Source of the DNA: an uncultured Clostridia bacterium
GTDB taxonomy: Bacteria > Bacillota > Clostridia > TANB77 > CAG-465
DNA: 64,000 nt
Direction of reading: 5' to 3'
NCBI GenBank assembly: GCA_947630145.1
Contig: CANRGL010000001.1
Coordinates: 17,289 to 81,288, forward strand
Shown here piece by piece: positions 981 through 56,291 of this stretch. Position 1 is the stretch's first letter; every line of letters begins with the position of its first letter. The translations under genes and the position numbers were made by a program. The notes beneath the pieces are model-generated. The model had not been told where the DNA came from, made no database searches, and was given only the letters and a program-made list of their open reading frames with translations.

Positions 981-1005
981 TTTTTACCATCCTTACATTT
1001 ATATA

Positions 1006-2142: not shown

Positions 2143-2143
2143 C

Positions 2144-6507: not shown

Positions 6508-6512
6508 TCATA

Positions 6513-8264
6513 TTACCCCTTACCTTGTTTTGTTCTTAAAACTTTTTTCATATAACATCCACCACTAAAGTGTTTAACGCATTCTAGACAACTTACACAT
6601 TTATTTTCATCTATTTTATATAAAATATTAAAATTATCTCCGACTTGCTTATCTAAATGCTTTATTGTAATTGCATTAAATTTACAAACACTTTCACATG
6701 CCATACATGCTATACACGTTTGAAATTTTGTAACTTGGTTTTTTATTAACATTTCTGTATTCTTACTATTATTAAATATTTTTGTTTCTTTTAATACTGA
6801 TATTTTTAACAAGTTTTGACCAAATTTTCCCCTAAGTTTCAATATAGGTTCTTTTGTTTTCTTATCCAAAACATATACCTCTCCTAGTCTTTTATTTCCA
6901 ATGCTAAAATCAATTATTCCAAAAGGTTTAAATAATTCATATAAGTTACTATCAATAGTTTTATTTAGCTCGAAATTATATGTATTTTCTTCCAAAACAC
7001 ATGGCTTAAAGCTTAAAATAGCATTAGAACTATATTTTAAGCCATTTCCTCCTTGTCTAGCTTTCCAACCACCAGAATTAATATATTCTTTTGGATCAGG
7101 TTTTCCAACTTGAGTTGCAAAATCTAATAAAACATTATGAAATTTATCATATTGTTCTTTCATATATATATTTGATAAATATTCTGACCAAGAAGAATTA
7201 TTTGGGCAACACCAACATCCAACTCTTGAAAATCCTTTTCTATATGCACTGTTGAAAGGTATTTTTTTTGTTAATATATATAACCATACATCAAAATCTA
7301 ACCAATCTATAATTGGTGCAATAGTCTGTTGTTTTGTAATTTTTGTGCCTACACTTTCTCTTTCATATTTACTTCTTGCTAATGATTCATTCCTTCTTAA
7401 TCCTTGAAATGTTAAAATTTTTAATTTATCTTTAAATGTAGATTCAATTTTTCTAGTAATTGCACCTGTTTTAAATATTGTACAACACCATCTCATAACT
7501 CTACTAGGAGGTCCTATAACTTTGCACAATTCATTAAAATTTTGTTCCTTATTCTTAGCTATCAATAATGGAGTTGCAGGGTGAGATTTTTTAAATTCAT
7601 TTATATATTCTTTTGTTTCAGGATATTCTAGTGTAGTATCTCCATATATATGTATTATTTTTTCAGTATTAAGAGCATTTATAACTAAATCACTTGTAAC
7701 AGTTGAATCTTTTCCACCAGAAAAAGATACAAACATTGTGTCAATAGTATATTGATTTGTAATTTTTTTTATATAATCATGTGCCTCCGTAACTATAGCA
7801 TTATATCTTATTTTATTAGCTTCAATAAATTTCAAAATATATTGTTGATTAAAAAAATTATCTTCATATACTCTGTTTTTTTCTTTATTTTCTATTATCA
7901 TGTTTCTAATTTCATTTGCATCTTTATTTTCGATTATGTCTTTAATAACAAATCTGTGTTTCTTTCCATCAATAAAGTAGTTATTACCTGATGTATTCCA
8001 TATTGATTTTTCAGCATATTTAAAAGGTTCTCCCTCTATTACTTCTATCAATAATCTTTCTTCAGGAAAAACAGGTCTAATATCTGTCCCTATATATACA
8101 CCATCACCATTACATATAGAACATTTTTTTTCAAAAATAGGAATATTACAATTTTTACAATAATATATTTCTGATTTATCAACATATGTTCTTCCATTGC
8201 AAACAGGACATGTACTTGTTTCGCACATTAAATTATCACAATTATTACATACATATCTAATCAT
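6513..8264 (-). CDS. PAPS reductase-family PP-loop ATP pyrophosphatase (SspD/DndC-like) with N-terminal Zn-ribbons and C-terminal 2x[4Fe-4S] ferredoxin domain
   Basis: PP-loop SFSGGKDS. Cys clusters CWCCP and CxxC x4 at the N-terminus. C-terminal CIACMACESVC...CVSCLECVKH. The ORF extends to 8327 but AGGAGG + ATG (MIRYV) at 8264 is the likely start. Confidence 0.7.
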   Translation of the reverse strand: MIRYVCNNCDNLMCETSTCPVCNGRTYVDKSEIYYCKNCNIPIFEKKCSICNGDGVYIGTDIRPVFPEERLLIEVIEGEPFKYAEKSIWNTSGNNYFIDGKKHRFVIKDIIENKDANEIRNMIIENKEKNRVYEDNFFNQQYILKFIEANKIRYNAIVTEAHDYIKKITNQYTIDTMFVSFSGGKDSTVTSDLVINALNTEKIIHIYGDTTLEYPETKEYINEFKKSHPATPLLIAKNKEQNFNELCKVIGPPSRVMRWCCTIFKTGAITRKIESTFKDKLKILTFQGLRRNESLARSKYERESVGTKITKQQTIAPIIDWLDFDVWLYILTKKIPFNSAYRKGFSRVGCWCCPNNSSWSEYLSNIYMKEQYDKFHNVLLDFATQVGKPDPKEYINSGGWKARQGGNGLKYSSNAILSFKPCVLEENTYNFELNKTIDSNLYELFKPFGIIDFSIGNKRLGEVYVLDKKTKEPILKLRGKFGQNLLKISVLKETKIFNNSKNTEMLIKNQVTKFQTCIACMACESVCKFNAITIKHLDKQVGDNFNILYKIDENKCVSCLECVKHFSGGCYMKKVLRTKQGKG

Positions 8265-8385
8265 TTTATCTCCTCCTATTTTATCTAAAATCAAAAAAAT
8301 TATATCATATTTTTTTTGGAGAAACAATTAATAAATAAAAATTTTCTCCAGTTTTTAAAAAATTTATAGACTAGTCTAAATTAGC

Positions 8386-11978: not shown

Positions 11979-12383
11979 TTATATAATTTCAATTATTTCA
12001 TCAATTAAAACTTCAGTTTTATTTTCTAAAATTATTTTTCTATTATACATATCTATTTTTTTCGCATTACCACTTATAGTTACATACTCTCCCCCTAATT
12101 TCTTTTTATCAGGTATATAATAAGTGATTGTAACTTTAGGACTATTTAACAAATTTAATTTAATTTCTTGTAATTTTAAATCAATTTTAGTTTTTTCTTC
12201 ATCGTCAAGTTCAATTCTATCTTCAGTAATTCTTGCAGTTTCTTTAATACTATCTCCATAACCAGTAAGTGCTGCAAATGGAGCAAATTGTGCTGCTCTT
12301 TGTTCTGAAGATAATCTTGGATGCTTTTTTGAAACATGATGTGGTAAATTTATTATATCATCATACTCGTTCATATTTCTCAC
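11979..12383 (-). CDS. YolD-like protein (accessory to Y-family polymerase)
   Basis: 134 aa with a RAAQFAPFAALTGYGDSI motif typical of the YolD family. Directly downstream of the polymerase gene. Confidence 0.65.
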   Translation of the reverse strand: MRNMNEYDDIINLPHHVSKKHPRLSSEQRAAQFAPFAALTGYGDSIKETARITEDRIELDDEEKTKIDLKLQEIKLNLLNSPKVTITYYIPDKKKLGGEYVTISGNAKKIDMYNRKIILENKTEVLIDEIIEII

Positions 12384-13883
12384 CTATTCCTTATGTCCTC
12401 CTATTTGAGAATTTCTTTCTATTGTTGTTCCATCTTTTTCTAAATTCATTCCTTTAAGAATAGAATTTTTACCAAATTTCTTTTTTATATCTATAATAGT
12501 ATGTTGCAAATTGTTTTCTTCTTTTAGTTTTTCTTTCATTTCAATTTTTTCTCTGTTTTGTTTATCATAATCTATAAAAAAACAAATTTGTTCATTTGGC
12601 TTTTTCTTTTCTGCCTCATATTCATTAACTACATTATTTGCTACAACATTTATTCTCCTTACAAGCAAATTTTTATTTATAATTCTTTCGTATAATTTTT
12701 CTATTGCCTCCATAATTATTTTTGTTGATGATGAATAATCTTCTAAATTTATTGTACCATGAGCATGTTTAGGAATTTCTCTACCATATCTATCTGTTGT
12801 AATTTCTCCATAATAAGATTCTTTTATCTTAGTATCTATTAAATTATCTATATCATAACCTATCGTCAAAACAAGTTGATTTGTTACTAAATGCTTTTCT
12901 ACCAAATCTAATACCAATAAATCTGTCATCTCTTTAACAATAAGTTTTGTTTGTTTATAATTATATGGGCAATGCAAAACTTGTCCTGAACTTATGCTAT
13001 TTGTGGACGGTTTAAAAGATTTTACTTCTTTCATAGTACAAGGCTCATATCCCCACGCATGATCTATTAAAAATTCTGCGTTTATTCCAAATAACTTATA
13101 TAATAATTCTTCATTATTTAAAGAACATCTAGCTATATCTCCCATAGTATATAAATGATGTTTTTCAAGTTTCTTTGCATATCCATTTCCCACTCTCCAA
13201 AAGTCTGTAATAGGTCTATGACTCCAAAGTAACTTCCTATAACTCATTTCATCCAATTCAGCAATCCTTACACCATTTTTATCTGCCACTTTATGTTTTG
13301 CCTCAATATCCATAGCAATTTTTGCTAAATACATATTAGTTCCTATTCCTGCTGTTGCTGTTATTCCAGTTAATTTATAAACATCATGTATCATTGTTGT
13401 TACCATTTCTTTTGGAGTCATTTTAGCATTTTTTAGATAATTAGTAATATCACAAAAGACCTCATCAATCGAATACGCATATATATCTTCACTAGCAACA
13501 TATTTCAAATATACATTATAAATTGTTGTACTATATTTCATATACAAAGACATTCTAGGTGGTGCAATAATATAGTCTAATTCTAAATTATTGTCTTGTT
13601 TTAATTCTCTATCATCATATGATTTTCCAGTAAATATATGATTTTTAGCTTTAAATCTTCTATTATTATTAACTTCCTTAACTCTTTGTATAACTTCAAA
13701 TAATCTAGCTCTACCTGATATTCCATAAGACTTTAATGAGGGAGTTACTGCTAAACATATTGTTTTTTCAGTTCTTGACTTATCTGCAACAACTAAATTT
13801 GTTCTTAACGGATCTAAATTTCTTTCCCTACATTCTACTGATGCGTAAAAACTTTTCAAATCGATACAACAAAAAACACTCAC
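12384..13883 (-). CDS. Y-family (UmuC/DinB/UvrX-like) translesion DNA polymerase
   Basis: IDLKSFYASVECRERNLDP N-terminal catalytic motif, about 500 aa. The ORF track extends to 13946 but AGGAGGG + GTG at 13883 is the likely start. Confidence 0.85.
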   Translation of the reverse strand: MSVFCCIDLKSFYASVECRERNLDPLRTNLVVADKSRTEKTICLAVTPSLKSYGISGRARLFEVIQRVKEVNNNRRFKAKNHIFTGKSYDDRELKQDNNLELDYIIAPPRMSLYMKYSTTIYNVYLKYVASEDIYAYSIDEVFCDITNYLKNAKMTPKEMVTTMIHDVYKLTGITATAGIGTNMYLAKIAMDIEAKHKVADKNGVRIAELDEMSYRKLLWSHRPITDFWRVGNGYAKKLEKHHLYTMGDIARCSLNNEELLYKLFGINAEFLIDHAWGYEPCTMKEVKSFKPSTNSISSGQVLHCPYNYKQTKLIVKEMTDLLVLDLVEKHLVTNQLVLTIGYDIDNLIDTKIKESYYGEITTDRYGREIPKHAHGTINLEDYSSSTKIIMEAIEKLYERIINKNLLVRRINVVANNVVNEYEAEKKKPNEQICFFIDYDKQNREKIEMKEKLKEENNLQHTIIDIKKKFGKNSILKGMNLEKDGTTIERNSQIGGHKE

Positions 13884-13938
13884 AAAATTCCCTCCTACTT
13901 TCTTAACAATACATATTATATAATAATATTTTTTATTT

Positions 13939-13950
13939 GTAAACATTTGT
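13939..13950. promoter_or_regulatory. Cheo/LexA box-like GAACAAATGTTT overlapping -35 of TTTACA-17-TATAAT promoter of the Y-family polymerase operon
   Basis: The minus-sense sequence GTGAACAAATGTTTACA-aataaaaaatattatta-TATAAT lies about 55 bp upstream of the GTG start. It matches the Gram-positive consensus GAAC-RNRY-GTTY. Confidence 0.5.
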
Positions 13951-15556: not shown

Positions 15557-16018
15557 TTATTTTGTTATATTAACAAGATAATCATAAAGTTTCTTAATAT
15601 CTGTCATATCTAACATTAAAGAAACCCCAATAACATCAATAGCACCATTATTATCTATTGGATATACTACTATTTCCATATTAGGCTCTTCGACCAATTT
15701 CTTATTTTCTAGACTTTCATAATATACTCCATATTCATCACCTTTAGGATAAAATCTTATCTTAAAAGTTTGTTCAATAGGAATAAAACATTTATAATCT
15801 TTCATATTTCCATCTAAAAAACTTTTTATATCTTCTCTTAATTCATCAACTTCATAACACATCAAATCATAACTACTATTTTCAAATTTTAATGTATAAT
15901 TACTAATTTTCCAATTAACATGAGCCCAACTATCATCTTCAACTTTTCTATATTTTTCATAACCATATATACACAGTTCAAGTTCGTCAAAACATAGTTT
16001 TACACTAACCTTATCCAT
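15557..16018 (-). CDS. hypothetical protein
   Basis: 153-aa ORF. Confidence 0.3.
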   Translation of the reverse strand: MDKVSVKLCFDELELCIYGYEKYRKVEDDSWAHVNWKISNYTLKFENSSYDLMCYEVDELREDIKSFLDGNMKDYKCFIPIEQTFKIRFYPKGDEYGVYYESLENKKLVEEPNMEIVVYPIDNNGAIDVIGVSLMLDMTDIKKLYDYLVNITK

Positions 16019-16046
16019 TTTTTCACTTCCTAATTATTTTACTTTT

Positions 16047-16469
16047 TTAATCCCAATTCATAATTTCTATATCTTCTATATTAAAATCTTTACCACATAT
16101 AGGACATTTACTTAAATTCTCTATAATATTCATTTTTTCATTACATTTAGAACATTTATATTCAGAAATGAAATCTTCATCATTTTTATCTAAAGCTATT
16201 AGTTTGAAGTAAAATTTATTTGTTATACTTTTACATTTTGGACATTGATATGTTTTATATCCATAATAATTTTCATCTAATATATATTTTTTTCCTTTTA
16301 ATATTTCGTTTAATTTTTCTCCATTTATTCCATCTTTATACCTTTTAATTAAATTAAATTTACTATCATATTTCATAAGTTCTGTCTTACTATCGAGCAT
16401 TCCTCTTCCTTCCATGAATTCAAATTCTTTTTTACATTTTTTACATACATATATCAAACCTTTTCCCAT
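16047..16469 (-). CDS. hypothetical zinc-ribbon protein
   Basis: 140 aa with several CxxC pairs (CKKCKK, CPKCKS, CSKCNE, CPICGK). Confidence 0.3.
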   Translation of the reverse strand: MGKGLIYVCKKCKKEFEFMEGRGMLDSKTELMKYDSKFNLIKRYKDGINGEKLNEILKGKKYILDENYYGYKTYQCPKCKSITNKFYFKLIALDKNDEDFISEYKCSKCNEKMNIIENLSKCPICGKDFNIEDIEIMNWD

Positions 16470-41565: not shown

Positions 41566-42495
41566 CTATCTTAAATCTCTTTCTTGTTTTAATCGTTCTC
41601 TTTTGTTATGTTCTTGGACACACAAAATTATAAAGTCCTCCACATTTCCTGTTTCTTTAATCTTTGTTGGTATATACTTATCAATTCTTTCGTTATGTAT
41701 TTTTATAAATTCCTTTTGATTTGGCTTTTCCTTATCAAGTAATTCTTCTATCTTTTCTTCTGATATAGTTCCTTCTTGTTGCATTTTCTTTAATGTTATG
41801 GCTTGACTCAAACTAGGGGAAACTTCATCATAATCTAATTTATTTAGAATGACATATTGATAATCTTCTTCTAAATATGATAGTTCAACAGCAGGTCTAA
41901 ATGCTATTCTTTTACTATCGACTTCATCTAATAATTCAGGTATTAGTTTAGTAAGTCTAATGTATCTTCTTATATTTTCCCTACTTTCTCCAACTTCTTC
42001 GCCTAATCTTTCTCTTGATGTTAACTTCGGCACCACTGGTGCATAAGTTTCATTTTCTTCAAATTCTACATTTTTTCCTTGATGTTTCATAGCTTCTAAC
42101 TTCATTTTATAGGCATAAGCCTTTTCACTTGGTAAAATTTCCTCTCTTTGAATATTACTATCTACCATTAAAATTGTTGCCTCATCATCAGATAAATTTT
42201 TAACAATACATCTTATCTTTTTTATTCCTGCTAATTCACAAGCTCTCTTTCTTCTATGACCTGAAATCATTTCATAAGTACCATCATTTTTTGGTCTAAC
42301 AATAACAGGAATTATTACACCATATTCCTTAACACTATTTACCATTTCTCTCATTTTATCATCATCATTTACTTTAAATGGATGATTAGGGAATTCTGAT
42401 ATTCTATTTATTTCAATTTCCTCTACCTTTTCAGCATTATTGAAATCTCTTTCTTCTTGTGTTGTAAAAAAATCATCTAACTTTGGAAGTTTCAT
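41566..42495 (-). CDS. ParB/Spo0J-like nuclease-partition protein
   Basis: ParB box GHRRKRA. The ORF extends to 42516 and overlaps the parA end. Confidence 0.7.
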   Translation of the reverse strand: MKLPKLDDFFTTQEERDFNNAEKVEEIEINRISEFPNHPFKVNDDDKMREMVNSVKEYGVIIPVIVRPKNDGTYEMISGHRRKRACELAGIKKIRCIVKNLSDDEATILMVDSNIQREEILPSEKAYAYKMKLEAMKHQGKNVEFEENETYAPVVPKLTSRERLGEEVGESRENIRRYIRLTKLIPELLDEVDSKRIAFRPAVELSYLEEDYQYVILNKLDYDEVSPSLSQAITLKKMQQEGTISEEKIEELLDKEKPNQKEFIKIHNERIDKYIPTKIKETGNVEDFIILCVQEHNKRERLKQERDLR

Positions 42496-43291
42496 TTCTA
42501 GATTTTGCTCTTTCATTTTCTACTACCTCCTTTGCTAGATTTTTATAAGCATTCGCAACAGGATTATTTTTATCAAATTCAAATATACTTTTACCAGTCA
42601 AACTTGATTTTGCAGTATTAACAGCTTTAGGAATTTCTGTATTATAAATATTTATATGTTGACCATAATTATTTTCTAATGTATCTCTTACTTGCTTTGA
42701 TAAATTTGTTCTTTTATCAACTAAAGTAAGTAAAACTCCACCTATTTTTAAATTAGGGTTTATTTGTTTATGAATTTTTGATACTGTTTGTAATAAATGT
42801 CCCATTCCTTTTGCAGCTAAATATTCTCCTTGAACAGGGATTATTATATTATCACTACATGCTAAGGCATTTATTGTTATCATACCTAAACTTGGCATAC
42901 AATCAATTAAAATATAATCATATTTATCTATAATGCTACTAATAGAATTTTTTAATGTATATTCTCTACTCATAGCATTAACTAAATACATTTCTAATGC
43001 AGATAAATCTAAATTTGATGGAATTAAGTCTATTCCTTCGGAGTGATGAAGAATAGTATTCTTAATATTTGTTTCTTTATCTTGAATTGCATTGTTCATT
43101 AAAGTTCCAATTGTATTTTGTAGTTCATCTTGATTATAATATCCCATACAAGTTGTTAAATCTCCTTGTGGATCTGCATCAATAAGTAAAACTTTTTTGC
43201 CTTGTTTTGCAAGTGCAACACCTAAAGAAAAAGTAGTTGTTGTTTTACCAACTCCACCCTTTTGATTAGCAATAGCAATAATCTTACTCAT
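42473..43291 (-). CDS. ParA/Soj-family ATPase
   Basis: Deviant Walker A KGGVGKTT, 272 aa. Confidence 0.85.
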   Translation of the reverse strand: MSKIIAIANQKGGVGKTTTTFSLGVALAKQGKKVLLIDADPQGDLTTCMGYYNQDELQNTIGTLMNNAIQDKETNIKNTILHHSEGIDLIPSNLDLSALEMYLVNAMSREYTLKNSISSIIDKYDYILIDCMPSLGMITINALACSDNIIIPVQGEYLAAKGMGHLLQTVSKIHKQINPNLKIGGVLLTLVDKRTNLSKQVRDTLENNYGQHINIYNTEIPKAVNTAKSSLTGKSIFEFDKNNPVANAYKNLAKEVVENERAKSRNETSKVR

Positions 43292-43889
43292 TTTTTTCCT
43301 CCTTTCCTATTTTTTCTAAACGGACAAAAGGAAATGATGAATTAAAAGTATCTATATAATTTATATCATTATCTATACAATCCACATATTTTTCTATCGA
43401 ATAATTTAATGCTTTTAATACATCAGTTTCTGTTAAAAAGTCTTCATCAAACTTTTTTAAGTATATAAAAATATCATTTACTAATATCATATCATCAAAC
43501 TCAAATGTATACCATTTTTCCAAAGCTGGTAAGTCTTTTTCAAATAAATCAATATCTAATATCTTATATACCAGTTCCATTGTGTTCATAACAGATGCTA
43601 TGTATTTATTACCTAACATTTCATCTTCTTTTTCAAATACTGACAAAAGATTTTTTACATCTTTCTCATTTTTAAATTGTTTAGCATACTTATTCATTAT
43701 TTTTTTAAATTTACTTGAATTTGATATTGTTAATTGCATTAGCTTTAATAAGCCCTTTGCTTTTACAACTTCATTTAATAATTGTTTTCTGTATGAATAA
43801 TATTCTTCCAAACAACATATTTTTCTTTGTGTTTCTATATATTTTTCTAGTTCTTCATTTGTTAATTCCTTATCATTTTCTTCTTCCAT
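43284..43889 (-). CDS. hypothetical protein (last gene of the element before the uvrB junction)
   Basis: 201-aa ORF. It has no recombinase motifs. Confidence 0.3.
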   Translation of the reverse strand: MEEENDKELTNEELEKYIETQRKICCLEEYYSYRKQLLNEVVKAKGLLKLMQLTISNSSKFKKIMNKYAKQFKNEKDVKNLLSVFEKEDEMLGNKYIASVMNTMELVYKILDIDLFEKDLPALEKWYTFEFDDMILVNDIFIYLKKFDEDFLTETDVLKALNYSIEKYVDCIDNDINYIDTFNSSFPFVRLEKIGKEEKNE

Positions 43890-43906: not shown

Positions 43907-43945
43907 AGGCAAAAAAAAACTAATTTATTTCTAAATTAGTTTTTA
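43907..43945 (-). terminator. terminator/attenuator hairpin immediately upstream of 201-aa gene
   Basis: AAAAACTAATTTA-tttc-TAAATTAGTTTTT followed in minus sense by a U8 tract. It lies only about 20 bp before the RBS of the 201-aa gene. Confidence 0.45.
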
Positions 43946-44132
43946 ATGTTAGATATTATTTCAATAATCATATACTTATTTTGATGAGGACGAATCAGGA
44001 CGAATACAGGTCACAAATTTTATTTTTTTCATTTAATTTTCTTTAATATCATTAAATGTTATATTGTTCATTTTTGCTGTATTTTCAAGCATTAAACGGT
44101 ACTAAACATCATTAGAATTTTTGCTATTCATT

Positions 44133-44417
44133 CTAACTGATAAAATATTCTACTGCATTTTCTGGAAAAAATTCTTTAAACTCTGAATAAAGTTGTCCTG
44201 CAAGTGTTTTATTGTGTGTCATAATTATAGTAGGTTTTTGCACCTGTTCAATAACATTTGCTATTGTAAATGTCTTTCCACTACCTGTAACTCCAAGTAG
44301 TGTTTGATCCTTATACCCTTTATTTATTCCATCTACAAGCTTTGAAATTGCTTGTGGTTGATCTCCTGTTGGTTTAAATTTGGAATGTAATTTAAATAAT
44401 TTTTTTTCTTCTTTCAT
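44133..44417 (-). pseudogene. uvrB: uvrB 5' fragment (first ~95 codons) truncated by insertion junction
   Basis: [23 protein letters not shown]...[17 protein letters not shown]...[17 protein letters not shown] is the conserved UvrB N-terminus. The conserved YYDYYQPE continuation is replaced by IS-stop at 44133-44141. Confidence 0.8.
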
Positions 44418-44639
44418 TTTTTCCTTTCTTTGTGACCTAATTAAATTTTTAAAAGATAACAATCAACCAGACTTTCGTACCCAAAATACAAATTTTTATT
44501 GGTTAATAGTGAATTTTTTGATGAGTACAAATACAGGTCACAAATTTTATTTTGTATAACTAAATAATAAGTGTACAAAACATTATGTTTATAAATAATT
44601 AATTTTATCGTTTTTTCTAGATAATCTAATCTTTTTTTA

Positions 44640-44990
44640 TTAATTGCATATTTTTTTAAAATATAATATTTTAAGAATTTTGTTGCCCATTTTCTTAACT
44701 TAATACCATTTTTAGATTTTACACGATAACCAACAGATATAATCATATCCAAATTATAATAATTAGTTAGCTTATCAGAAAATTCAGAATTTCCGAATTT
44801 AGTTAAAGTTTCACTTTCCAATAGTTCCCCATCTTTATAAATATTTTTTCATTTATTGTAGATTTATCTTTTTGGAATAATTATGCCATTTGTTCTCGTG
44901 TTATACCTTCTATTTCATCTTTAATATTAGCATCTAATTTTACATTTTGATTTTCAAATATAATAATATCATTTTTTCGTATTTATTTAT
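44640..44990 (-). pseudogene. degenerate RhuM-family paralog (in-frame stop and frameshift)
   Basis: Translation in two frames parallels the intact RhuM copy (DIIIFENQNV...; LDMIISVGYRVKSKNGIKLRKWATKF). A TAA interrupts it after REQMA. Confidence 0.5.
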
Positions 44991-46005
44991 TTTCATTTAA
45001 ATATCTCTTATACATTTCATCCATACTTGAAATATATTGTTCGTCTTGTTTTATTCTATACTTTTCATATTCTGCATTAGCTTTATTAATTGCTTGTTTA
45101 TGAGATATTTTTCCAGAATCTTTTAGGAGTTCTTTTTTTCTAAATTTTAATAAATTATCCGTTTCATTTATCCAGTCTCTCATAGTCATAACTTGATTTT
45201 CTTCTGCCATTGTTTCTGCATAATCTAAAAATAATGTAGTTAAATTGTTTAGTTTCTTTAGTTCTTCTTCTCTTAAATAATTTTTTGCAATAGTTACATC
45301 ATATTTATATATCATTCCATCTGGAGCTTCTTTCCAAGTTGTAAGTCCCATATTAGTTTTACTTGCATCTACTCTTTCAAAAATAAGTTCAGCAGCAGTG
45401 TGTCCTGTTATTGCATAATGTAACTTATTTTGTACGATTTTAAAAAATGTATATGCTTCTTCAGAATTTTTATCATAATCAATTGATGTACTTATAAAGA
45501 TATCTGTTATTTTTTGATATGCCATTCTTTCACTTGTACGAATTACTTTTATTCTTTCTAATAATTCATCAAAATATTTTTGATTTACTTTTTCACCTTT
45601 TAGAAATCTTTCATCATCTAAAGCGAATCCTTTTGTCATATATGAATTTAATATTTTTGTTGCCCATATTCTAAATTCTGTTGCTTTTTTAGAATTAACT
45701 CTATATCCAACAGATATTATAACATCTAAGTTATAAAATTCTGTATTATATTTCTTCCCATCATTTGCAGTATGTGCAAATTTTGCACATACTTGATTTT
45801 TATCTAATTCACCTTCATTAAAAATATTTTTTAAATGTTTTGTTATCACACTTCTATCTATATCAAATATTTCAGACATAGTCTTTTGAGATACCCATAA
45901 AGTTTCGCCGTTTATCAATAACTCAATATTAGTATCACCATTATCTTTTTTATAAAACACTATATCACTATTAGAAGCAATCATTTTATTATCCATAAAT
46001 ATCAC
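44983..46005 (-). CDS. RhuM-family protein
   Basis: 340 aa with the DVIISVGYRVNSKKATEFRIWATKIL core typical of the RhuM/DinD-like family. Confidence 0.65.
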   Translation of the reverse strand: MIFMDNKMIASNSDIVFYKKDNGDTNIELLINGETLWVSQKTMSEIFDIDRSVITKHLKNIFNEGELDKNQVCAKFAHTANDGKKYNTEFYNLDVIISVGYRVNSKKATEFRIWATKILNSYMTKGFALDDERFLKGEKVNQKYFDELLERIKVIRTSERMAYQKITDIFISTSIDYDKNSEEAYTFFKIVQNKLHYAITGHTAAELIFERVDASKTNMGLTTWKEAPDGMIYKYDVTIAKNYLREEELKKLNNLTTLFLDYAETMAEENQVMTMRDWINETDNLLKFRKKELLKDSGKISHKQAINKANAEYEKYRIKQDEQYISSMDEMYKRYLNENK

Positions 46006-46273
46006 CTTCTTTTATATATCATTTTTATTATAACTTAATAACTTTCAAAAATCCTTACACGAATTTTATATAAATCAAGTCATAAACTTTTTTGTTCGTT
46101 TAACTTTATTTAGTTTTTTAGCGTTATTTTATAATTTTTTTCTTTCTTTATGATATTAAATAATACAAAATAACATTTTTTACTATATAATAATATCATT
46201 TTTTGCTTGAAAAAACAAGGATTTAAAAAAATCCTTGTTAATATTATTTTAACTAATTTCAAATATCATAAGT

Positions 46274-48169: not shown

Positions 48170-51100
48170 TTATGATTTTTTATTTAATAGTTTTATTGTT
48201 GTAAATCCTGCTACACTAAGTCCTGCTACTACAAGCATTATAAGTAAATCTAGACTTAATGTTCCACCAGTTACTGGTAATGTTTTTGGTTCATTATACA
48301 CTGTTGTTTCAAATATTTCACCATTCTCACTTAATGTAAATGATTTTTCTTTATTATTTACAATATATTTGTCTGGTGCTGATATTTCTCTATAATAGTA
48401 TTTACCTACTGTTAATGGTTTACTTTCAGCAATACCTTGAGCATTTGTAACTATTGTGTCTATTACTTGTTTATTCTCATCAAGTATTTCAAAAGTTACT
48501 CCTTCAATTGGTGCTTTAGTTTGTTTATCTAGTTTTATAATTCTTAATGTTCCAGTTGATTTTTTATTTTCTACTGTTTTTAAAACTTGAGTATTTTTTG
48601 AAGTTACTTCAAATTCATATTCATTAGTATCCATTACATATTCTTTTGGTGCACTTACTTCTTTGTAATAATATGTTCCTATTAATAATTCTTTAGAAGT
48701 TGCTTTACCATTTGAATCAGTAGTTATTGTATCTACTACTTTATGATCCTTATCTAATATATCAAATTTTACTCCTTTAATTGGTTCATTTGAATCATCT
48801 ACTTTTGTTATTTCGATAAATCCTCTAACGCGTTCATTTTTTACTATCTTTTTAATCATTTGGTTAACATTTTTAACTTCAAATTTATATATATCAGAAT
48901 CCATTATATATCCATCTGGTGCTGATATTTCTTGATAAGTATATACGCCTTTTACTAAAGGTACATTTGATACAGCAATACCATTTTTGTCTGTTGTTAT
49001 TGTATCAACTACTTTTCCTTCTGTATCTTTTATTTCAAATACAACACCTTCAACTGGATTTTTAGCATCATCTATTTTTGTGATTTGAATTGTTCCAGTT
49101 ATTTTTTTATTTGTTACTGTTTGTTTTATAACTTCATTATTTGTATTTATTTCAAATTTAACTTTTTTATCGCTAAATTCATAATATGCTGGTGCTTCTA
49201 TTTCTTGATAATAATATGTTCCTTTTAGTAAATCTTTTACTTCAGCCTTACCTTCTTTATTTGTTGTAACTGTTTTTATAACTTTTTTATTTGAATCTAA
49301 AATATTAAATTTTACTCCTTCTATTGGTGCCTTTGTATCTTCATCTACTTTTAATATTTCTAAACTTCCTTTTATTCTATAGTTTATTACTTCTCTTTTT
49401 ACTACTTCATTGTCTTCATTTATTTTAAATTCAAAAATTTCTTCATCTTTTATATATCCATCTGGTACTTCTACTTCTTGATAATAATATGTTCCTTTTG
49501 CTAATGCTTTAGTTGTTGCATATCCTGTTTTATCTGTTACTAAAGTTTCAATTACTGTTTTCTTATCACTTGCTAATATATTAAATTTTACTCCTTTAAT
49601 ACCAACTCTTGTATCATCTAGTTTTGTTATTTCTAATTTTCCTTTTATTTTTTTGTTTATTACTTCTCTTTTTACTACTTCATTATCATCATTTATTTTA
49701 AATTCAAAGATTCCTTCATCTTTTATATATCCATCTGGCACTTCTACTTCTTGATAGTAGTATGTTCCTTTTTCTAATTTCTTTGTTGTTGCATATCCTC
49801 TACTGTCTGTTACTAATGTTTCTATTACTGTCTTTTTATCACTTGCTAGTATATTAAATTTTACTCCTTCTATTCCTACTCTACTATCATCTAGTTTTGT
49901 TATCTCTAGTCTTCCTCTTATCTTTTTGTTTGTTACTGTTGCTTTTGCTATCTTATTTTCATCTGTTATCTTAAATTCTTTCATACTATTATCTACTATA
50001 TATCCATTTGGTGCACTTATCTCTTTGTAATAGTATGTTCCATTTGCCATATTGTCTATCTTTAATACTGCTTTTCCGTCTTTTCCTGTTGTTATTTCAC
50101 TTATCTTTTCTTTCTTTGAATTATATACTTCAAATTTTACTCCTTCTATTGGTTCTTTTGTTTCTTCATCTATCTTTAATAGCTCTAAACCACCTATTAT
50201 TTTCTCATTTACTGCTTTTATTGTTACTGTCTTTGATATATCTACTTGTACTGTCTCTTTCTTATAGTTCATTATATATCCTTCTGGCGCACTTACTTCT
50301 TCTACTGTATATTTACCTACTGGTATTCCTGTTATTGTTATCTTTCCTTCTTTATTTGTTTTCTTATCTGCTACTACTTCTCCTGCTTCATTTGTTACTT
50401 TAAATTCTGCTCCTTCTACACTTGCTCCATTTTGGTCTACTTTTATTATCTCTATATTTCCTTCTCTTTTTTCCCATGTAAATGTTGTATTTGCACTTAT
50501 TGTTTTTTGCTCAAAATCTAAAAATACATAGTTTTGCAATGTGTTTCCACTTGCTCCATATATTACACCAACTTTCTCATTTGCTACTGCTTTTATATTT
50601 AATGTTACTTTTGTTGGTGCTGCATTTTTATCTACTAATACGTATACATCTTCACCTTTATTAAATTTATCTCTTATTCTATTATCTTTATCTACTACTA
50701 ATGTTCCTTTTGGTGCATTACTTACACTTGCTTCATATACTGTATAGTTATAGTCTACTACATTTACTTTAAATGGTCCTATCTTGTTCATCTCTACATA
50801 ACTATTATAGTCTACATTTCCTCCACTTACACTTATTGATGGATTATATGTATTCTTTGCTAGTATGTTTGCTGCTACTTTCTTTGCACTATTTACTACT
50901 TCTGTATATCCTCCTGCTGCATTTGGTTGAATATTATTTAAATTAAATGTTTTTCCTTTTGTATATGATGTTCCACTTACTGTTTGCCATACTGCCATTT
51001 GTGTTCCCAAGTATGCTGCTTCTACATTTATTGCTCCTAACTGAGCTACTGTTTTATTTGGATATCCATTACTTATTACTGATACTAATTTATTTGATCT

Positions 51101-51373
51101 TACTGTTTTTATATATGATAATGATGACATCTCTTTTGGTGCCCTTACTCCATAATCTATACAATATGCTTGATTTCCTCCTATTGTAGTTATTGCATAT
51201 TCATGGTATGCATTATTTAGATTATCATACATTGCAGCCTTGTATGGCGCATGTGAATATGCTAGATTTTCCCTTCCTGCGTTTACAGAAAATGGATTTA
51301 AATCTGCTATCATTACAAAAAGTACTGCAAATATTACCAATATTTTGCTTTTTATATTTTTCATCTTTTTCAT
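48170..51373 (-). CDS. LPVTG-anchored TQXA thioester-domain adhesin with CnaB/SpaA-type repeat shaft (copy 1)
   Basis: Signal peptide. AYCIDYG Cys motif and LGTQMAVWQ (TQxA). Many prealbumin-fold repeats (GKYTVEEVSAPEGYI). C-terminal LPVTGG + TM + KKS. Confidence 0.8.
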   Translation of the reverse strand: MKKMKNIKSKILVIFAVLFVMIADLNPFSVNAGRENLAYSHAPYKAAMYDNLNNAYHEYAITTIGGNQAYCIDYGVRAPKEMSSLSYIKTVRSNKLVSVISNGYPNKTVAQLGAINVEAAYLGTQMAVWQTVSGTSYTKGKTFNLNNIQPNAAGGYTEVVNSAKKVAANILAKNTYNPSISVSGGNVDYNSYVEMNKIGPFKVNVVDYNYTVYEASVSNAPKGTLVVDKDNRIRDKFNKGEDVYVLVDKNAAPTKVTLNIKAVANEKVGVIYGASGNTLQNYVFLDFEQKTISANTTFTWEKREGNIEIIKVDQNGASVEGAEFKVTNEAGEVVADKKTNKEGKITITGIPVGKYTVEEVSAPEGYIMNYKKETVQVDISKTVTIKAVNEKIIGGLELLKIDEETKEPIEGVKFEVYNSKKEKISEITTGKDGKAVLKIDNMANGTYYYKEISAPNGYIVDNSMKEFKITDENKIAKATVTNKKIRGRLEITKLDDSRVGIEGVKFNILASDKKTVIETLVTDSRGYATTKKLEKGTYYYQEVEVPDGYIKDEGIFEFKINDDNEVVKREVINKKIKGKLEITKLDDTRVGIKGVKFNILASDKKTVIETLVTDKTGYATTKALAKGTYYYQEVEVPDGYIKDEEIFEFKINEDNEVVKREVINYRIKGSLEILKVDEDTKAPIEGVKFNILDSNKKVIKTVTTNKEGKAEVKDLLKGTYYYQEIEAPAYYEFSDKKVKFEINTNNEVIKQTVTNKKITGTIQITKIDDAKNPVEGVVFEIKDTEGKVVDTITTDKNGIAVSNVPLVKGVYTYQEISAPDGYIMDSDIYKFEVKNVNQMIKKIVKNERVRGFIEITKVDDSNEPIKGVKFDILDKDHKVVDTITTDSNGKATSKELLIGTYYYKEVSAPKEYVMDTNEYEFEVTSKNTQVLKTVENKKSTGTLRIIKLDKQTKAPIEGVTFEILDENKQVIDTIVTNAQGIAESKPLTVGKYYYREISAPDKYIVNNKEKSFTLSENGEIFETTVYNEPKTLPVTGGTLSLDLLIMLVVAGLSVAGFTTIKLLNKKS

Positions 51374-51491
51374 CTTTTTTTCCTCCTATATTTTTATATA
51401 TATTCTTTTTTTATTGCTTTTTTTACTCTACATTTATATTATAGCACATTTAATTAACTTTGTCAACATAATATTTAAAATTATGTAAAAT

Positions 51492-51520
51492 AAACGACCG
51501 TATTTATATTACGATCGTTT
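51492..51520 (-). terminator. intergenic hairpin terminator between the two adhesin paralogs
   Basis: AAACGACCGTA-tttatat-TACGATCGTTT (one G-U in minus sense) followed by a U-rich tract. Confidence 0.45.
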
Positions 51521-51533
51521 ACCTACATTAAAA

Positions 51534-54500
51534 TTATGATCTTTTAGCTTTAATAAGTTTTACTGTTGTAAATCCTGCTACACTAAGTCCTGCTACTACA
51601 AGCATTATAAGTAAATCTAGGCTTAATGTTCCACCAGTTACTGGTAATGTTTTTGGATCATTATATACTGTTGTTTCAAATATCTCACCATTCTCACTTA
51701 ATGTAAATGATTTTTCTTTATTATTTACAATATATTTGTCTGGTGCTGATATTTCTCTATAATAGTATTTACCTACTGTTAATGGTTTACTTTCAGCAAT
51801 ACCTTGAGCATTTGTAACTATTGTGTCTATTACTTGTTTATTCTCATCAAGTATTTCAAAAGTTACTCCTTCAATTGGTGCTTTAGTTTGTTTATCTAGT
51901 TTTATAATTCTTAATGTTCCAGTTGATTTTTTATTTTCTACTGTTTTTAAAACTTGAGTATTTTTTGAAGTTACTTCAAATTCATATTCATTAGTATCCA
52001 TTACATATTCTTTTGGTGCACTTACTTCTTTGTAATAATATGTTCCTATTAATAATTCTTTAGAAGTTGCTTTACCATTTGAATCAGTAGTTATTGTATC
52101 TACTACTTTATGATCCTTATCTAATATATCAAATTTTACTCCTTTAATTGGTTCATTTGAATCATCTACTTTTGTTATTTCGATAAATCCTCTAACGCGT
52201 TCATTTTTTACTATCTTTTTAATCATTTGGTTAACATTTTTAACTTCAAATTTATATATATCAGAATCCATTATATATCCATCTGGTGCTGATATTTCTT
52301 GATAAGTATATACGCCTTTTACTAAAGGTACATTTGATACAGCAATACCATTTTTGTCTGTTGTTATTGTATCAACTACTTTTCCTTCTGTATCTTTTAT
52401 TTCAAATACAACACCTTCAACTGGATTTTTAGCATCATCTATTTTTGTGATTTGAATTGTTCCAGTTATTTTTTTATTTGTTACTGTTTGTTTTATAACT
52501 TCATTATTTGTATTTATTTCAAATTTAACTTTTTTATCGCTAAATTCATAATATGCTGGTGCTTCTATTTCTTGATAATAATATGTTCCTTTTAGTAAAT
52601 CTTTTACTTCAGCCTTACCTTCTTTATTTGTTGTAACTGTTTTTATAACTTTTTTATTTGAATCTAAAATATTAAATTTTACTCCTTCTATTGGTGCCTT
52701 TGTATCTTCATCTACTTTTAATATTTCTAAACTTCCTTTTATTCTATAGTTTATTACTTCTCTTTTTACTACTTCATTGTCTTCATTTATTTTAAATTCA
52801 AAAATTTCTTCATCTTTTATATATCCATCTGGTACTTCTACTTCTTGATAATAATATGTTCCTTTTGCTAATGCTTTAGTTGTTGCATATCCTGTTTTAT
52901 CTGTTACTAAAGTTTCAATTACTGTTTTCTTATCACTTGCTAATATATTAAATTTTACTCCTTTAATACCAACTCTTGTATCATCTAGTTTTGTTATTTC
53001 TAATTTTCCTTTTATTTTTTTGTTTATTACTTCTCTTTTTACTACTTCATTATCATCATTTATTTTAAATTCAAAGATTCCTTCATCTTTTATATATCCA
53101 TCTGGCACTTCTACTTCTTGATAGTAGTATGTTCCTTTTTCTAATTTCTTTGTTGTTGCATATCCTCTACTGTCTGTTACTAATGTTTCTATTACTGTCT
53201 TTTTATCACTTGCTAGTATATTAAATTTTACTCCTTCTATTCCTACTCTACTATCATCTAGTTTTGTTATCTCTAGTCTTCCTCTTATCTTTTTGTTTGT
53301 TACTGTTTGTTTTATAACTTCATTATTTGTATTTATTTCAAATTTAACTTTTTTATCGCTAAATTTATAATATGCTGGTGCTTCTATTTCTTGATAATAA
53401 TATGTTCCTTTTAGTAAATCTTTTACTTCAGCTTTACCTTCTTTATTTGTTGTAACTGTTTTTATAACTTTTTTATTTGAATCTAAAATATTAAATTTTA
53501 CTCCTTCTATTGGTGCCTTTGTATCTTCATCTACTTTTAATATTTCTAAACTTCCTTTTATTCTATAGTTTATTACTTCTCTTTTTACTACTTCATTGTC
53601 TTCATTTATTTTAAATTCAAAAATTTCTTCATCTTTTATATATCCATCTGGTACTTCTACTTCTTGATAATAATATGTTCCTTTTGCTAATGCTTTAGTT
53701 GTTGCATATCCTGTTTTATCTGTTACTAAAGTTTCAATTACTGTTTTCTTATCACTTGCTAATATATTAAATTTTACTCCTTTAATACCAACTCTTGTAT
53801 CATCTAGTTTTGTTATTTCTAATTTTCCTTTTATTTTTTTGTTTATTACTTCTCTTTTTACTACTTCATTATCATCATTTATTTTAAATTCAAAGATTCC
53901 TTCATCTTTTATATATCCATCTGGCACTTCTACTTCTTGATAGTAGTATGTTCCTTTTTCTAATTTCTTTGTTGTTGCATATCCTCTACTGTCTGTTACT
54001 AATGTTTCTATTACTGTCTTTTTATCACTTGCTAGTATATTAAATTTTACTCCTTCTATTCCTACTCTACTATCATCTAGTTTTGTTATCTCTAGTCTTC
54101 CTCTTATCTTTTTGTTTGTTACTGTTGCTTTTGCTATCTTATTTTCATCTGTTATCTTAAATTCTTTCATACTATTATCTACTATATATCCATTTGGTGC
54201 ACTTATCTCTTTGTAATAGTATGTTCCATTTGCCATATTGTCTATCTTTAATACTGCTTTTCCGTCTTTTCCTGTTGTTATTTCACTTATCTTTTCTTTC
54301 TTTGAATTATATACTTCAAATTTTACTCCTTCTATTGGTTCTTTTGTTTCTTCATCTATCTTTAATAGCTCTAAACCACCTATTATTTTCTCATTTACTG
54401 CTTTTATTGTTACTGTCTTTGATATATCTACTTGTACTGTCTCTTTCTTATAGTTCATTATATATCCTTCTGGCGCACTTACTTCTTCTACTGTATATTT

Positions 54501-55559
54501 ACCTACTGGTATTCCTGTTATTGTTATCTTTCCTTCTTTATTTGTTTTCTTATCTGCTACTACTTCTCCTGCTTCATTTGTTACTTTAAATTCTGCTCCT
54601 TCTACACTTGCTCCATTTTGGTCTACTTTTATTATCTCTATATTTCCTTCTCTTTTTTCCCATGTAAATGTTGTATTTGCACTTATTGTTTTTTGCTCAA
54701 AATCTAAAAATACATAGTTTTGCAATGTGTTTCCACTTGCTCCATATATTACACCAACTTTCTCATTTGCTACTGCTTTTATATTTAATGTTACTTTTGT
54801 TGGTGCTGCATTTTTATCTACTAATACGTATACATCTTCACCTTTATTAAATTTATCTCTTATTCTATTATCTTTATCTACTACTAATGTTCCTTTTGGT
54901 GCATTACTTACACTTGCTTCATATACTGTATAGTTATAGTCTACTACATTTACTTTAAATGGTCCTATCTTGTTCATCTCTACATAACTATTATAGTCTA
55001 CATTTCCTCCACTTACACTTATTGATGGATTATATGTATTCTTTGCTAGTATGTTTGCTGCTACTTTCTTTGCACTATTTACTACTTCTGTATATCCTCC
55101 TGCTGCATTTGGTTGAATATTATTTAAATTAAATGTTTTTCCTTTTGTATATGATGTTCCACTTACTGTTTGCCATACTGCCATTTGTGTTCCCAAGTAT
55201 GCTGCTTCTACATTTATTGCTCCTAACTGAGCTACTGTTTTATTTGGATATCCATTACTTATTACTGATACTAATTTATTTGATCTTACTGTTTTTATAT
55301 ATGATAATGACGCACTTTCTTTTGGCGCTCTTATACCATAATCTATACAATATGCTTGATTTCCACCTATTGTGGCTATTGCATATTCATAGTATGCATT
55401 ATGTAGATTATCATACATTGCTGCCTTATATGGCGCATGTGAATATGCTAGATTTTCCCTTCCTGCGTTTACAGAAAATGGATTTAGATCTGCTATCATT
55501 GCAAAAAATACCGCAAGTATTACCAATATTTTGCTTTTTATATTCTTCATCTTTTTCAT
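51534..55559 (-). CDS. LPVTG-anchored TQXA thioester-domain adhesin (copy 2, with extra 274-aa internal repeat block)
   Basis: 1341 aa. Identical to copy 1 over most of its length. The N-terminal domain differs at about 10 positions. An internal 822-bp tandem duplication is present. Confidence 0.8.
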   Translation of the reverse strand: MKKMKNIKSKILVILAVFFAMIADLNPFSVNAGRENLAYSHAPYKAAMYDNLHNAYYEYAIATIGGNQAYCIDYGIRAPKESASLSYIKTVRSNKLVSVISNGYPNKTVAQLGAINVEAAYLGTQMAVWQTVSGTSYTKGKTFNLNNIQPNAAGGYTEVVNSAKKVAANILAKNTYNPSISVSGGNVDYNSYVEMNKIGPFKVNVVDYNYTVYEASVSNAPKGTLVVDKDNRIRDKFNKGEDVYVLVDKNAAPTKVTLNIKAVANEKVGVIYGASGNTLQNYVFLDFEQKTISANTTFTWEKREGNIEIIKVDQNGASVEGAEFKVTNEAGEVVADKKTNKEGKITITGIPVGKYTVEEVSAPEGYIMNYKKETVQVDISKTVTIKAVNEKIIGGLELLKIDEETKEPIEGVKFEVYNSKKEKISEITTGKDGKAVLKIDNMANGTYYYKEISAPNGYIVDNSMKEFKITDENKIAKATVTNKKIRGRLEITKLDDSRVGIEGVKFNILASDKKTVIETLVTDSRGYATTKKLEKGTYYYQEVEVPDGYIKDEGIFEFKINDDNEVVKREVINKKIKGKLEITKLDDTRVGIKGVKFNILASDKKTVIETLVTDKTGYATTKALAKGTYYYQEVEVPDGYIKDEEIFEFKINEDNEVVKREVINYRIKGSLEILKVDEDTKAPIEGVKFNILDSNKKVIKTVTTNKEGKAEVKDLLKGTYYYQEIEAPAYYKFSDKKVKFEINTNNEVIKQTVTNKKIRGRLEITKLDDSRVGIEGVKFNILASDKKTVIETLVTDSRGYATTKKLEKGTYYYQEVEVPDGYIKDEGIFEFKINDDNEVVKREVINKKIKGKLEITKLDDTRVGIKGVKFNILASDKKTVIETLVTDKTGYATTKALAKGTYYYQEVEVPDGYIKDEEIFEFKINEDNEVVKREVINYRIKGSLEILKVDEDTKAPIEGVKFNILDSNKKVIKTVTTNKEGKAEVKDLLKGTYYYQEIEAPAYYEFSDKKVKFEINTNNEVIKQTVTNKKITGTIQITKIDDAKNPVEGVVFEIKDTEGKVVDTITTDKNGIAVSNVPLVKGVYTYQEISAPDGYIMDSDIYKFEVKNVNQMIKKIVKNERVRGFIEITKVDDSNEPIKGVKFDILDKDHKVVDTITTDSNGKATSKELLIGTYYYKEVSAPKEYVMDTNEYEFEVTSKNTQVLKTVENKKSTGTLRIIKLDKQTKAPIEGVTFEILDENKQVIDTIVTNAQGIAESKPLTVGKYYYREISAPDKYIVNNKEKSFTLSENGEIFETTVYNDPKTLPVTGGTLSLDLLIMLVVAGLSVAGFTTVKLIKAKRS

Positions 55560-55685
55560 CTTTTTTTCCTCCTATATTTCTATATATATTCTTCTTTTAT
55601 TACTTTTTTTACTCTACATTTATATTATAGCACATTTAAATTGTAATCGTCAACATAATTTTGAAACATTTTTGAAATTTTTACA

Positions 55686-56291
55686 CTATATTAATTCACC
55701 TTTTAAAACTACTCTTGCACTAGCATTATAATTACATGTAATTAAAGTGATCTCTCTTTTATCAGAATTGTTTATAACTTCTATACTAGTTGGAGAAACT
55801 GTTTGTTTTGAAGTAATTTTATACGTATATGTAGTAGTCTTAGTTGTAACCTTTACTTCATCTCCAATATTTACTTTATTTAAGTTTCTAAATATTTCAG
55901 TATATATATTATTGTGAGCTGCTACACTAAAGTTTCCTATTTGTCCTGGCATAGCTGCTCCTTTAAACATACCTATATAATTTTTTAAAGTTTGATTATC
56001 TGTACCTTCTTTTACAACACCTTTTATTCCCTGAGATGGTATCTGAATAACGGCTATTGCATTTCCTGTAACTTGAATATTTTCATCTGCTGAAGAAGAT
56101 GTAGCTTCACCTGTTGCTGAGCCAACATCAGTACCTGGAGTACCATTAAACTCAACATTAAGAAGTGCCTCAATCTCCTTTTCTTGTTTTTTATCTCTTA
56201 TCATATTCTTAATAAATATTGCTGTAGCTGAAACAACTACAATAAAAATTACTAAAATTACAATTTCTTTTACTTTTACTTTAATTTTCAT
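55686..56291 (-). CDS. sortase (TLITC active site)
   Basis: 201 aa with an N-terminal TM segment, His in AAHNNIY and TLITCN catalytic Cys. Directly upstream of the LPVTG adhesins. Confidence 0.7.
   Translation of the reverse strand: MKIKVKVKEIVILVIFIVVVSATAIFIKNMIRDKKQEKEIEALLNVEFNGTPGTDVGSATGEATSSSADENIQVTGNAIAVIQIPSQGIKGVVKEGTDNQTLKNYIGMFKGAAMPGQIGNFSVAAHNNIYTEIFRNLNKVNIGDEVKVTTKTTTYTYKITSKQTVSPTSIEVINNSDKREITLITCNYNASARVVLKGELI

Follow-up and report, generated by a model that had tools for sequence, protein, structure and literature searches.

An open reading frame that encodes the start of UvrB, breaks off after 94 codons and abuts a conjugative element raises the question of whether the bacterium that carries it has lost nucleotide excision repair. 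The frame lies in a 64-kb stretch of DNA from an uncultured Clostridia bacterium, which we refer to as the window (~25% G+C, with nearly all genes on the minus strand). An earlier note, made from these letters alone, had proposed that a conjugative element was inserted in uvrB and that the host was left with a broken excision-repair gene. What lies at the two ends of the element agrees with the first proposal and speaks against the second: the element's far end carries two recombinase genes followed by a complete uvrB, and the fragment in the window would be a displaced former start of that gene.

The two junctions

The fragment runs on the minus strand from an ATG at 44417-44415 to a TAG at 44135-44133 and corresponds to residues 1-94 of UvrB, a protein of ~650-660 aa at full length. 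Over 88 residues it shares 93% identity with the start of the intact 651-aa UvrB of locus L001, a Clostridia MAG that is the closest species-representative genome to the window. A tblastn search of the 64-kb window with a full-length UvrB query found no other UvrB segment, in keeping with the truncation described in the earlier note. At the nucleotide level, homology to uvrB extends as far as 44140, where a shared 11-nt stretch, GAATATTTTAT, comes to its end; beyond it the window reads CAGTTAG... (CAGTTAGAATGAAT...) where intact genes read TTCATATTATGAT..., and this CAGTTAGAATGAAT... sequence is element DNA that supplies the TAG of the fragment. The abruptness of this junction, and nothing more, might suggest that the assembly is chimeric here or that the fragment is a pseudogene in decay with no relation to the element. 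That reading is scarcely credible, since the junction is 100% identical in three independent assemblies (ENA ERZ27249118 NODE_151, ENA ERZ27249337 NODE_143 and a Logan contig of ERR10663753), the fragment has neither an internal stop nor a frameshift, and the same breakpoint recurs in many taxa.

Three contigs (L082, L084 and L086) are 100% identical to the window where they overlap it and extend the element 10.2 kb past position 1. They were reached by exact look-up of the window's SspA and then of the integrase found there; the ATG-start form of SspA matched, and the GTG-start form and the 94-aa and 109-aa fragment ORFs gave no matches. A single 65.5-kb contig holds both junctions, as the record coordinates show (window position = record position - 17266). 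The order at the far end is Int1, Int2, a 661-aa uvrB that starts 273 nt past the Int2 gene, yabP, yabQ, divIC and vanW. L001 likewise has yabP-yabQ-divIC-vanW downstream of its intact uvrB, with two extra genes between uvrB and yabP. Against the NCBIfam UvrB equivalog, whose cut-off is 743 bits, the far-end UvrB reaches 1073.7 bits, and the alignment covers 652 of the 653 positions of the profile. The recombinase and the far uvrB segment had both been predicted to lie beyond position 1; extending the sequence indeed brought up two tyrosine recombinases, 9-10 kb on, and the uvrB segment is likewise present, but as a complete gene and more than the expected 3' part. On the terms of the earlier note, its reading would have fallen if the genome had an intact uvrB elsewhere and the fragment were a small duplicated remnant away from any element boundary. 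Half of this is the case: an intact gene does exist, 54 kb away, but the fragment sits exactly at the boundary.

The two uvrB starts form an imperfect direct repeat (L084 12558-13055 against window 44616-44140; 78% identity over 501 nt) that covers the DNA before uvrB, a ribosome-binding stretch that is the same in both, and codons 1 to ~94, and the encoded N-termini are 85% identical in amino acids. After the 11-nt core L084 reads TTCATATTATGATTAC..., where uvrB carries on as SYYDYYQPEAY. Since the repeat ends in the same core at both junctions, the element measures ~54.35 kb, larger than 44 kb as had been supposed. The core is probably the crossover region, and the element thus has flanking direct repeats derived from its target, as integrative and conjugative elements (ICEs) do (attL and attR), and a complete target gene at one of the two junctions, as elements that restore a gene end do. 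We put at about 0.88 the probability that this conjugative element inserted site-specifically and left the fragment as its attL scar. The element would recombine with uvrB inside the conserved ...VEYF(I/V)S... codons (~93-95) and would carry, beside its recombinase genes, its own uvrB upstream region, ribosome-binding site and first ~94 codons. Integration would fuse this start in frame to host codons ~95-661, giving a chimeric uvrB at attR, and the prior uvrB 5' end would be pushed 54 kb away, to end at the element-encoded TAG of the 44133-44417 feature. The predicted excision products are GAAAACGCAGTTGAATATTTTATCAGTTAGAATGAATAGC for attP and GAAAATGCAGTAGAATATTTTATTTCATATTATGATTAC for attB.

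True insertional inactivation, in the manner of the 'switch' prophages of comK or mutL, in which uvrB is split and the host is without nucleotide excision repair for as long as the element is integrated, would fit a window that holds codons 1-94 alone, without a 3' part. It is nonetheless very improbable, given a complete 661-aa gene with a full-length equivalog match at the other junction of the same contig and an intact gene beside the recombinase pair in all relatives. With a complete uvrB at the far junction the gene appears rebuilt, not broken, and nucleotide excision repair is probably not lost in this host. A truncated repair gene beside a mobile element therefore need not mean a repair-deficient host, tempting as that misreading is. 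Consensus scans for promoters and terminators around both uvrB starts scored at or below shuffled expectation; the promoter scans being uninformative, we infer that the chimeric uvrB is expressed and active. Between the stop of the fragment and orf201, the first gene of the element, lies an A+T-only hairpin followed by a T run (43912-43945; AAAAACTAATTTAGAAATAAATTAGTTTTTTTTT), which the terminator scan misses because the hairpin has no G-C pairs and which matters for any read-through from the displaced uvrB upstream region into the element.

Table 1. Features at and around the left junction (window positions unless L084 is named)
Feature	Position	Strand	Remarks
Left 44.1 kb of conjugative element	1-44139	minus	Pfam scans; 100% overlaps with extending contigs
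ParB	41566-42516	minus	after ParA
ParA	42473-43291	minus	after orf201
orf201	43284-43889	minus	first element gene past junction; 201 aa, without family match
Element-side arm motif AAAATTTGTGACCTGTATTCGTCCTGATTCGTCC	43985-44021	minus	two ATTCGTCC units; 119-162 nt inside element
uvrB' fragment	44133-44417	minus	94 codons + TAG; displaced uvrB 5' end, left junction (attL)
11-nt core GAATATTTTAT	44140-44150; L084 13045-13055	minus	identical at both junctions, mismatch each side
Upstream region of fragment	44418-44578	minus	homologous to int-proximal arm, 78% with fragment
1.57-kb insertion relative to int-proximal arm	44579-46149	minus	three-way alignment
Full RhuM-family gene	44983-46005	minus	Pfam; in 1.57-kb insertion
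Second relic-arm piece, hairpin + AAAAATGATATTATTATATAGTAAAAAATGTT...	46150-46246	minus	92% to L084 12518-12612

Relatives, recombinases and the probable crossover site

Elements related to that of the window indicate which of the two uvrB starts travels. Two relatives of Int1, P0017 (67% identity) and P0012 (70%), retain the recombinase pair, and wherever their contigs run past Int2 (L087-L093) a uvrB of 650-654 aa is directly next. At least five different gene contexts follow uvrB among the P0017 and P0012 relatives, which implies that the hosts of these elements differ. When the P0017 element was aligned from five hosts, DNA identity was 100% from int2 to uvrB nucleotide ~270 (...TACTTTGTT) and 62-79% thereafter. 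This drop indicates that the upstream region and the first ~90 codons travel with the element and that the rest of the gene belongs to the host; a substitute gene end that moves between hosts is thus seen directly for this relative, and the switch from element to host falls at the same codons as the junction in the window. From these relatives and from a conserved arm architecture, we infer that the int-proximal uvrB start of the window's element is likewise element-borne.

The recombinases, Int1 (395 aa) and Int2 (434 aa), are encoded in L084 by two tandem genes with 5 nt between them. Each has a Phage_integrase match, so the element has its own recombinases at one end, as expected of an ICE. 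The two are 30% identical over their full length, and the R-K-H-R-H-Y residues can be read in each (GLRK.E, a K in the beta-hairpin, H..R and GHS....Y), as judged by eye from the sequences and an alignment with the Tn1549 Int. That integrase (6EMY) is also the closest solved structure, with weak similarity (E 7.7e-10 for Int1 and 1.9e-5 for Int2). Arm-DNA-bind_4 passes its Pfam threshold in Int2 only (23.4 against 22.3 bits), and neither protein reached a curated NCBIfam family. The pair is present in L084, L087-L094, L015, L029, L032 and L063, with an intergenic gap of 2-5 nt, so that two distantly related tandem genes are kept together, and it presumably catalyses the insertion.

Short repeats in the two arms are candidates for arm-type integrase binding sites. 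The 8-mer ATTCGTCC occurs six times in 74 kb, every copy within the two arms: two copies in the window (43988-44005, and nowhere else there; 0.27 expected) and four in the int-proximal arm of L084 (12441-12714; 0.11 expected). A related element at the same site, in L127, has kept the double ATTCGTCC motif, as far inward from its left end as in the window's element. The int-proximal arms of L084, L093 and L087 have a common layout, consisting of a hairpin, AAATTTGTGAC...ATTCGTCCCC, two inverted GGGGACGAAT units and the ribosome-binding site.

The arms also contain a 23-nt direct repeat, AAATTTGTGACCTGTATTCGTCC (window 44020-43998 and L084 12628-12650), and it is conceivable that the real crossover took place there, with the element upstream of uvrB and the fragment an unrelated duplicated remnant. 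The repeat is perfect, in direct orientation and near both ends of the element, as such a crossover would have it. Against it, the switch from element to host, compared across hosts, falls inside uvrB at about codon 90 and not upstream of the gene, all fragments seen in other genomes stop at these same codons, and the outer flank of the 23-mer in the window is not homologous to the uvrB upstream region; we regard this placement as most unlikely and retain the crossover within uvrB.

Content of the element and origin of the displaced start

The supposition that all DNA below the junction is mobile agrees with its gene content. From the junction the order is orf201, ParA, ParB, a SpaA adhesin, a giant SNF2/LPD16 protein (2405 aa), Toprim, a MobA-type relaxase, VirD4, a pilin-like protein, PrgI, VirB4, a sortase, CHAP, ImpB/YolD and an Ssp-like cluster. 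Pfam matches provide the conjugation module of an ICE (relaxase PF03432 of the MobA/VirD2 type, T4SS-DNA_transf/TraG-D_C, PrgI and CHAP), and the VirB4-type ATPase ORF has TraG P-loop and AAA_10 domains. No integrase was found among the 45 window ORFs scanned against Pfam. Past position 1 there follow a PLD-helicase, an SMC-like ATPase and a dnd-associated protein, then a sigma-70 region-4-like ORF and small ORFs, and finally a 106-aa HTH protein with a weak HTH_17 match, a candidate excisionase by its sequence, before Int1 and Int2.

Several genes of the element deserve mention in their own right. The phosphorothioation-linked, SspABCD-like cluster at 1-11160 encodes a cysteine desulfurase, a 1169-aa BrxC/PglY_N protein, a DUF4007 protein, a PAPS-reductase/4Fe-4S protein and a 924-aa protein; it lies inside the element, as the earlier note had it, and the PLD-helicase, SMC-like ATPase and dnd-associated protein past the window (L084 1862-6767) are further cargo. 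A Y-family polymerase (ImpB/UmuC-like, 520 aa) with a weakly matching YolD-like partner (11979-13946) is encoded on this uvrB-rebuilding element, and a WapI-like immunity protein and a zinc-ribbon protein (15557-16469) lie between its sortase and its CHAP hydrolase. The element may still be able to excise. One metagenome scan with the core and its 5' flank as query returned 31 intact uvrB genes of other taxa and neither the attB nor the attP of this element, and exact look-ups of the ABC transporter, which matched the same strain only, gave no empty site.

The other side of the junction, towards higher coordinates, is occupied by two RhuM genes (one truncated, one full), an ABC exporter, a pair of TED/SpaA adhesin genes, a sortase, recG, gatB and proS. 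The related host L127 has syntenic adhesin homologues (79-83% nucleotide identity) upstream of its own uvrB fragment, which indicates that the adhesin genes are chromosomal. These tandem thioester adhesin genes (48170-56291; 1067 and 1341 aa, followed by the sortase) share long near-identical internal repeats, which break short-read assemblies at this place.

The upstream region of the displaced fragment resembles a decayed element arm, and for this reason we think it more probable that the fragment was left behind by an earlier, related insertion than that it is the 5' end with which the host gene began. In the stretch next to the fragment the ribosome-binding stretch is identical to that of the int-proximal arm, and the arm motifs are decayed (ATTTGTAC, with one GGGGACGAAT unit absent). 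A second piece of relic arm lies further out, separated from the first by the 1.57-kb RhuM segment; its counterpart in L084 is the segment just downstream of int2, which is conserved in the arm of the relative L093. The truncated RhuM is an ORF at 44441-44821 (RhuM-like part ~44621-44779) with 71% nucleotide identity over 132 nt to the full copy.

It could instead be that the fragment is a pristine host 5' end with its native promoter and that the element captured its arm from a similar host. The GC3 of the fragment (0.137) resembles that of host genes and of the rest of the far-end uvrB (0.113), with the int-proximal 5' copy at 0.229, a comparison that mildly favours this alternative but is too weak to decide the origin of the two 5' copies; and the adhesin genes to the right are chromosomal synteny common with L127. 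We think this unlikely to be right, though by no means far-fetched. The DNA upstream of the fragment (44418-44578 and 46150-46246) is 78-92% identical to the arm after int2, which must be element DNA because it is conserved in three elements of different hosts (L084, L093 and L087); the arm motifs are decayed in the window copy; and L127 has unrelated sequence, with an 84-aa ORF, upstream of its fragment. An origin from an earlier insertion thus remains our preferred reading. If there were a tandem array, a third uvrB fragment should lie further right; tblastn and alignment of the window revealed none.

uvrB as a probable attachment site

Phage 21 and e14, the classical parallel, integrate in the icd gene of E. 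coli and bring with them a substitute for the end that they cut off, in their case the 3' end. The uvrB element is similar in that a tyrosine-recombinase element occupies a conserved housekeeping gene, brings a diverged substitute end that keeps the gene complete, and leaves a displaced duplicate at the other junction. It differs in that the 5' end is replaced, comprising the upstream region, the ribosome-binding site and ~94 codons with Walker A, and in that the element is conjugative and has two recombinases. With elements that interrupt repair or competence genes, such as SpyCIM1 in mutL and phi10403S in comK, gene function is lost or uncoupled during integration. The uvrB element resembles these switch elements in that its target is a DNA-repair gene with the element in the 5' part, but it differs from them in rebuilding a complete gene: the chimeric uvrB at attR appears intact, so its target would not be non-functional during integration.

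Parts of the module are reminiscent of Tn916 and Tn1549, in which a small sigma-like regulator and Xis precede an Int at the end of the element, namely the sigma-70 region-4-like ORF and the HTH ORF before the integrases and the arm-binding domain of Int2. Unlike those elements, which have a single Int with Xis and low target specificity, inserting in AT-rich DNA, the uvrB element has two integrases and is strictly site-specific, with uvrB as its single fixed target in genome after genome, and its relaxase is of the MobA/VirD2 type and its coupling protein of the VirD4 type.

Tyrosine-recombinase IMEs and ICEs of Firmicutes insert at the 3' end of housekeeping genes or, less often, at the 5' end; the gene survives undisrupted because one of the flanking repeats contains its end (Guedon et al. 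2017, PMC5704250). IME_SanC238_tatD from that review likewise targets a housekeeping gene 5' end. Compared with the elements reviewed there, the uvrB element has an unusually long repeat (~500 nt) and a crossover ~280 nt into the coding sequence. The same review describes as a 'Tyr duo' the two distantly related tandem tyrosine recombinases of Prevotella MTnPi1-3 (PMC5704250). The uvrB element is like these by arrangement, with a tandem pair kept in all relatives examined; MTnPi1-3, however, are mobilisable transposons of Bacteroidota with short degenerate targets, whereas the pair described here is tied to a single gene target. The string 'uvr' has no match in the text of the review (PMC5704250), and in the literature searched we found no paper that names uvrB as an integration site or links uvrB with ICE or IME integration. 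The insertion in uvrB is thus an ordinary mechanism in an undescribed and widespread guise, which differs in its target, the depth of its crossover and its recombinase pair.

Marks of such elements at uvrB were present in 10 of the 80 species-representative loci returned. At four of these (L014, L035, L071 and L074) there are fragments that break within TATTTTGTNTCCTAYTAYGATTA and continue into unrelated or element DNA; one (L051) has an Int2-like C-terminus together with a uvrB 5' fragment; and at five (L015, L029, L032, L063 and L065) a recombinase pair, 50-54% identical, immediately precedes an intact uvrB. The best 120 database matches to the 94-aa fragment are all short (88-165 aa), many of them from contigs 50-500 kb long. 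Of the 120, 33 terminate precisely at EYF[VI]S and 19 share a 16-residue tail, mostly resembling YYENTLNPVIFSVV. Genes cut short at these codons are common among Clostridia and make up dozens of protein clusters, with fragments in Lachnospiraceae, Acutalibacteraceae, Enterocloster and other Clostridia. A verbatim copy of the 26-mer around the core is present in 31 unrelated metagenome contigs, each of which has an intact uvrB.

The uvrB site is a concrete, highly conserved attachment site, used by the pair across Lachnospiraceae, Acutalibacteraceae and other Clostridia, that should be useful for delimiting conjugative elements in gut metagenomes. The pair itself offers candidate site-specific recombinases with a ready landing site in many Firmicutes. 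We also note that annotation pipelines will call the ~90-aa fragments 'DEAD/DEAH helicase, partial', a name that we saw once at NCBI.

Replacement of the UvrB promoter and N-terminus raises the question of whether the regulation of repair is changed as well. One can imagine that codon ~93-95 of uvrB is an undescribed, widely used docking site for a large family of two-recombinase Clostridial elements that, by replacing the upstream region and the N-terminal ATPase segment, take control of nucleotide excision repair; that the displaced upstream region reads into the first genes of the element and could couple its activity to DNA damage; and that successive insertions stack displaced 5' ends, the window fragment being perhaps a second-generation relic. 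Taken as a whole we hold this scenario to be rather doubtful. A search for a LexA (Cheo) box upstream of 16 uvrB starts gave one match, at the L014 fragment (AGAACAAATGTTTG at -99) and not at the intact gene of L014; neither uvrB copy of the present genome has such a box upstream, and the idea of SOS rewiring thus stays speculative.

Three further observations concern the same site. Nineteen clusters of UvrB N-terminal proteins of ~102 aa (P0131, P0158, P0167, P0172-P0174 and others) have a 16-residue tail after EYF that is mostly like YYENTLNPVIFSVV or YYKKGLKTVLFSTI; these sequences point to a second large lineage of elements at the same site, of which L127, with the same gene order as the window's element, is one example. 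In L014 (8539-11956; Acutalibacteraceae) a uvrB fragment, a 1.2-kb remnant and an intact uvrB follow one another in what looks like a decayed element. Lastly, the 2.5-kb contig L051 of 'Bacterium D16-51' holds, at 73-2469, the Int2-like C-terminus, a uvrB 5' fragment ending ...YFVSYND* and then unrelated DNA, which is the order expected of the joint of an excised element (attP) or of a secondary site.
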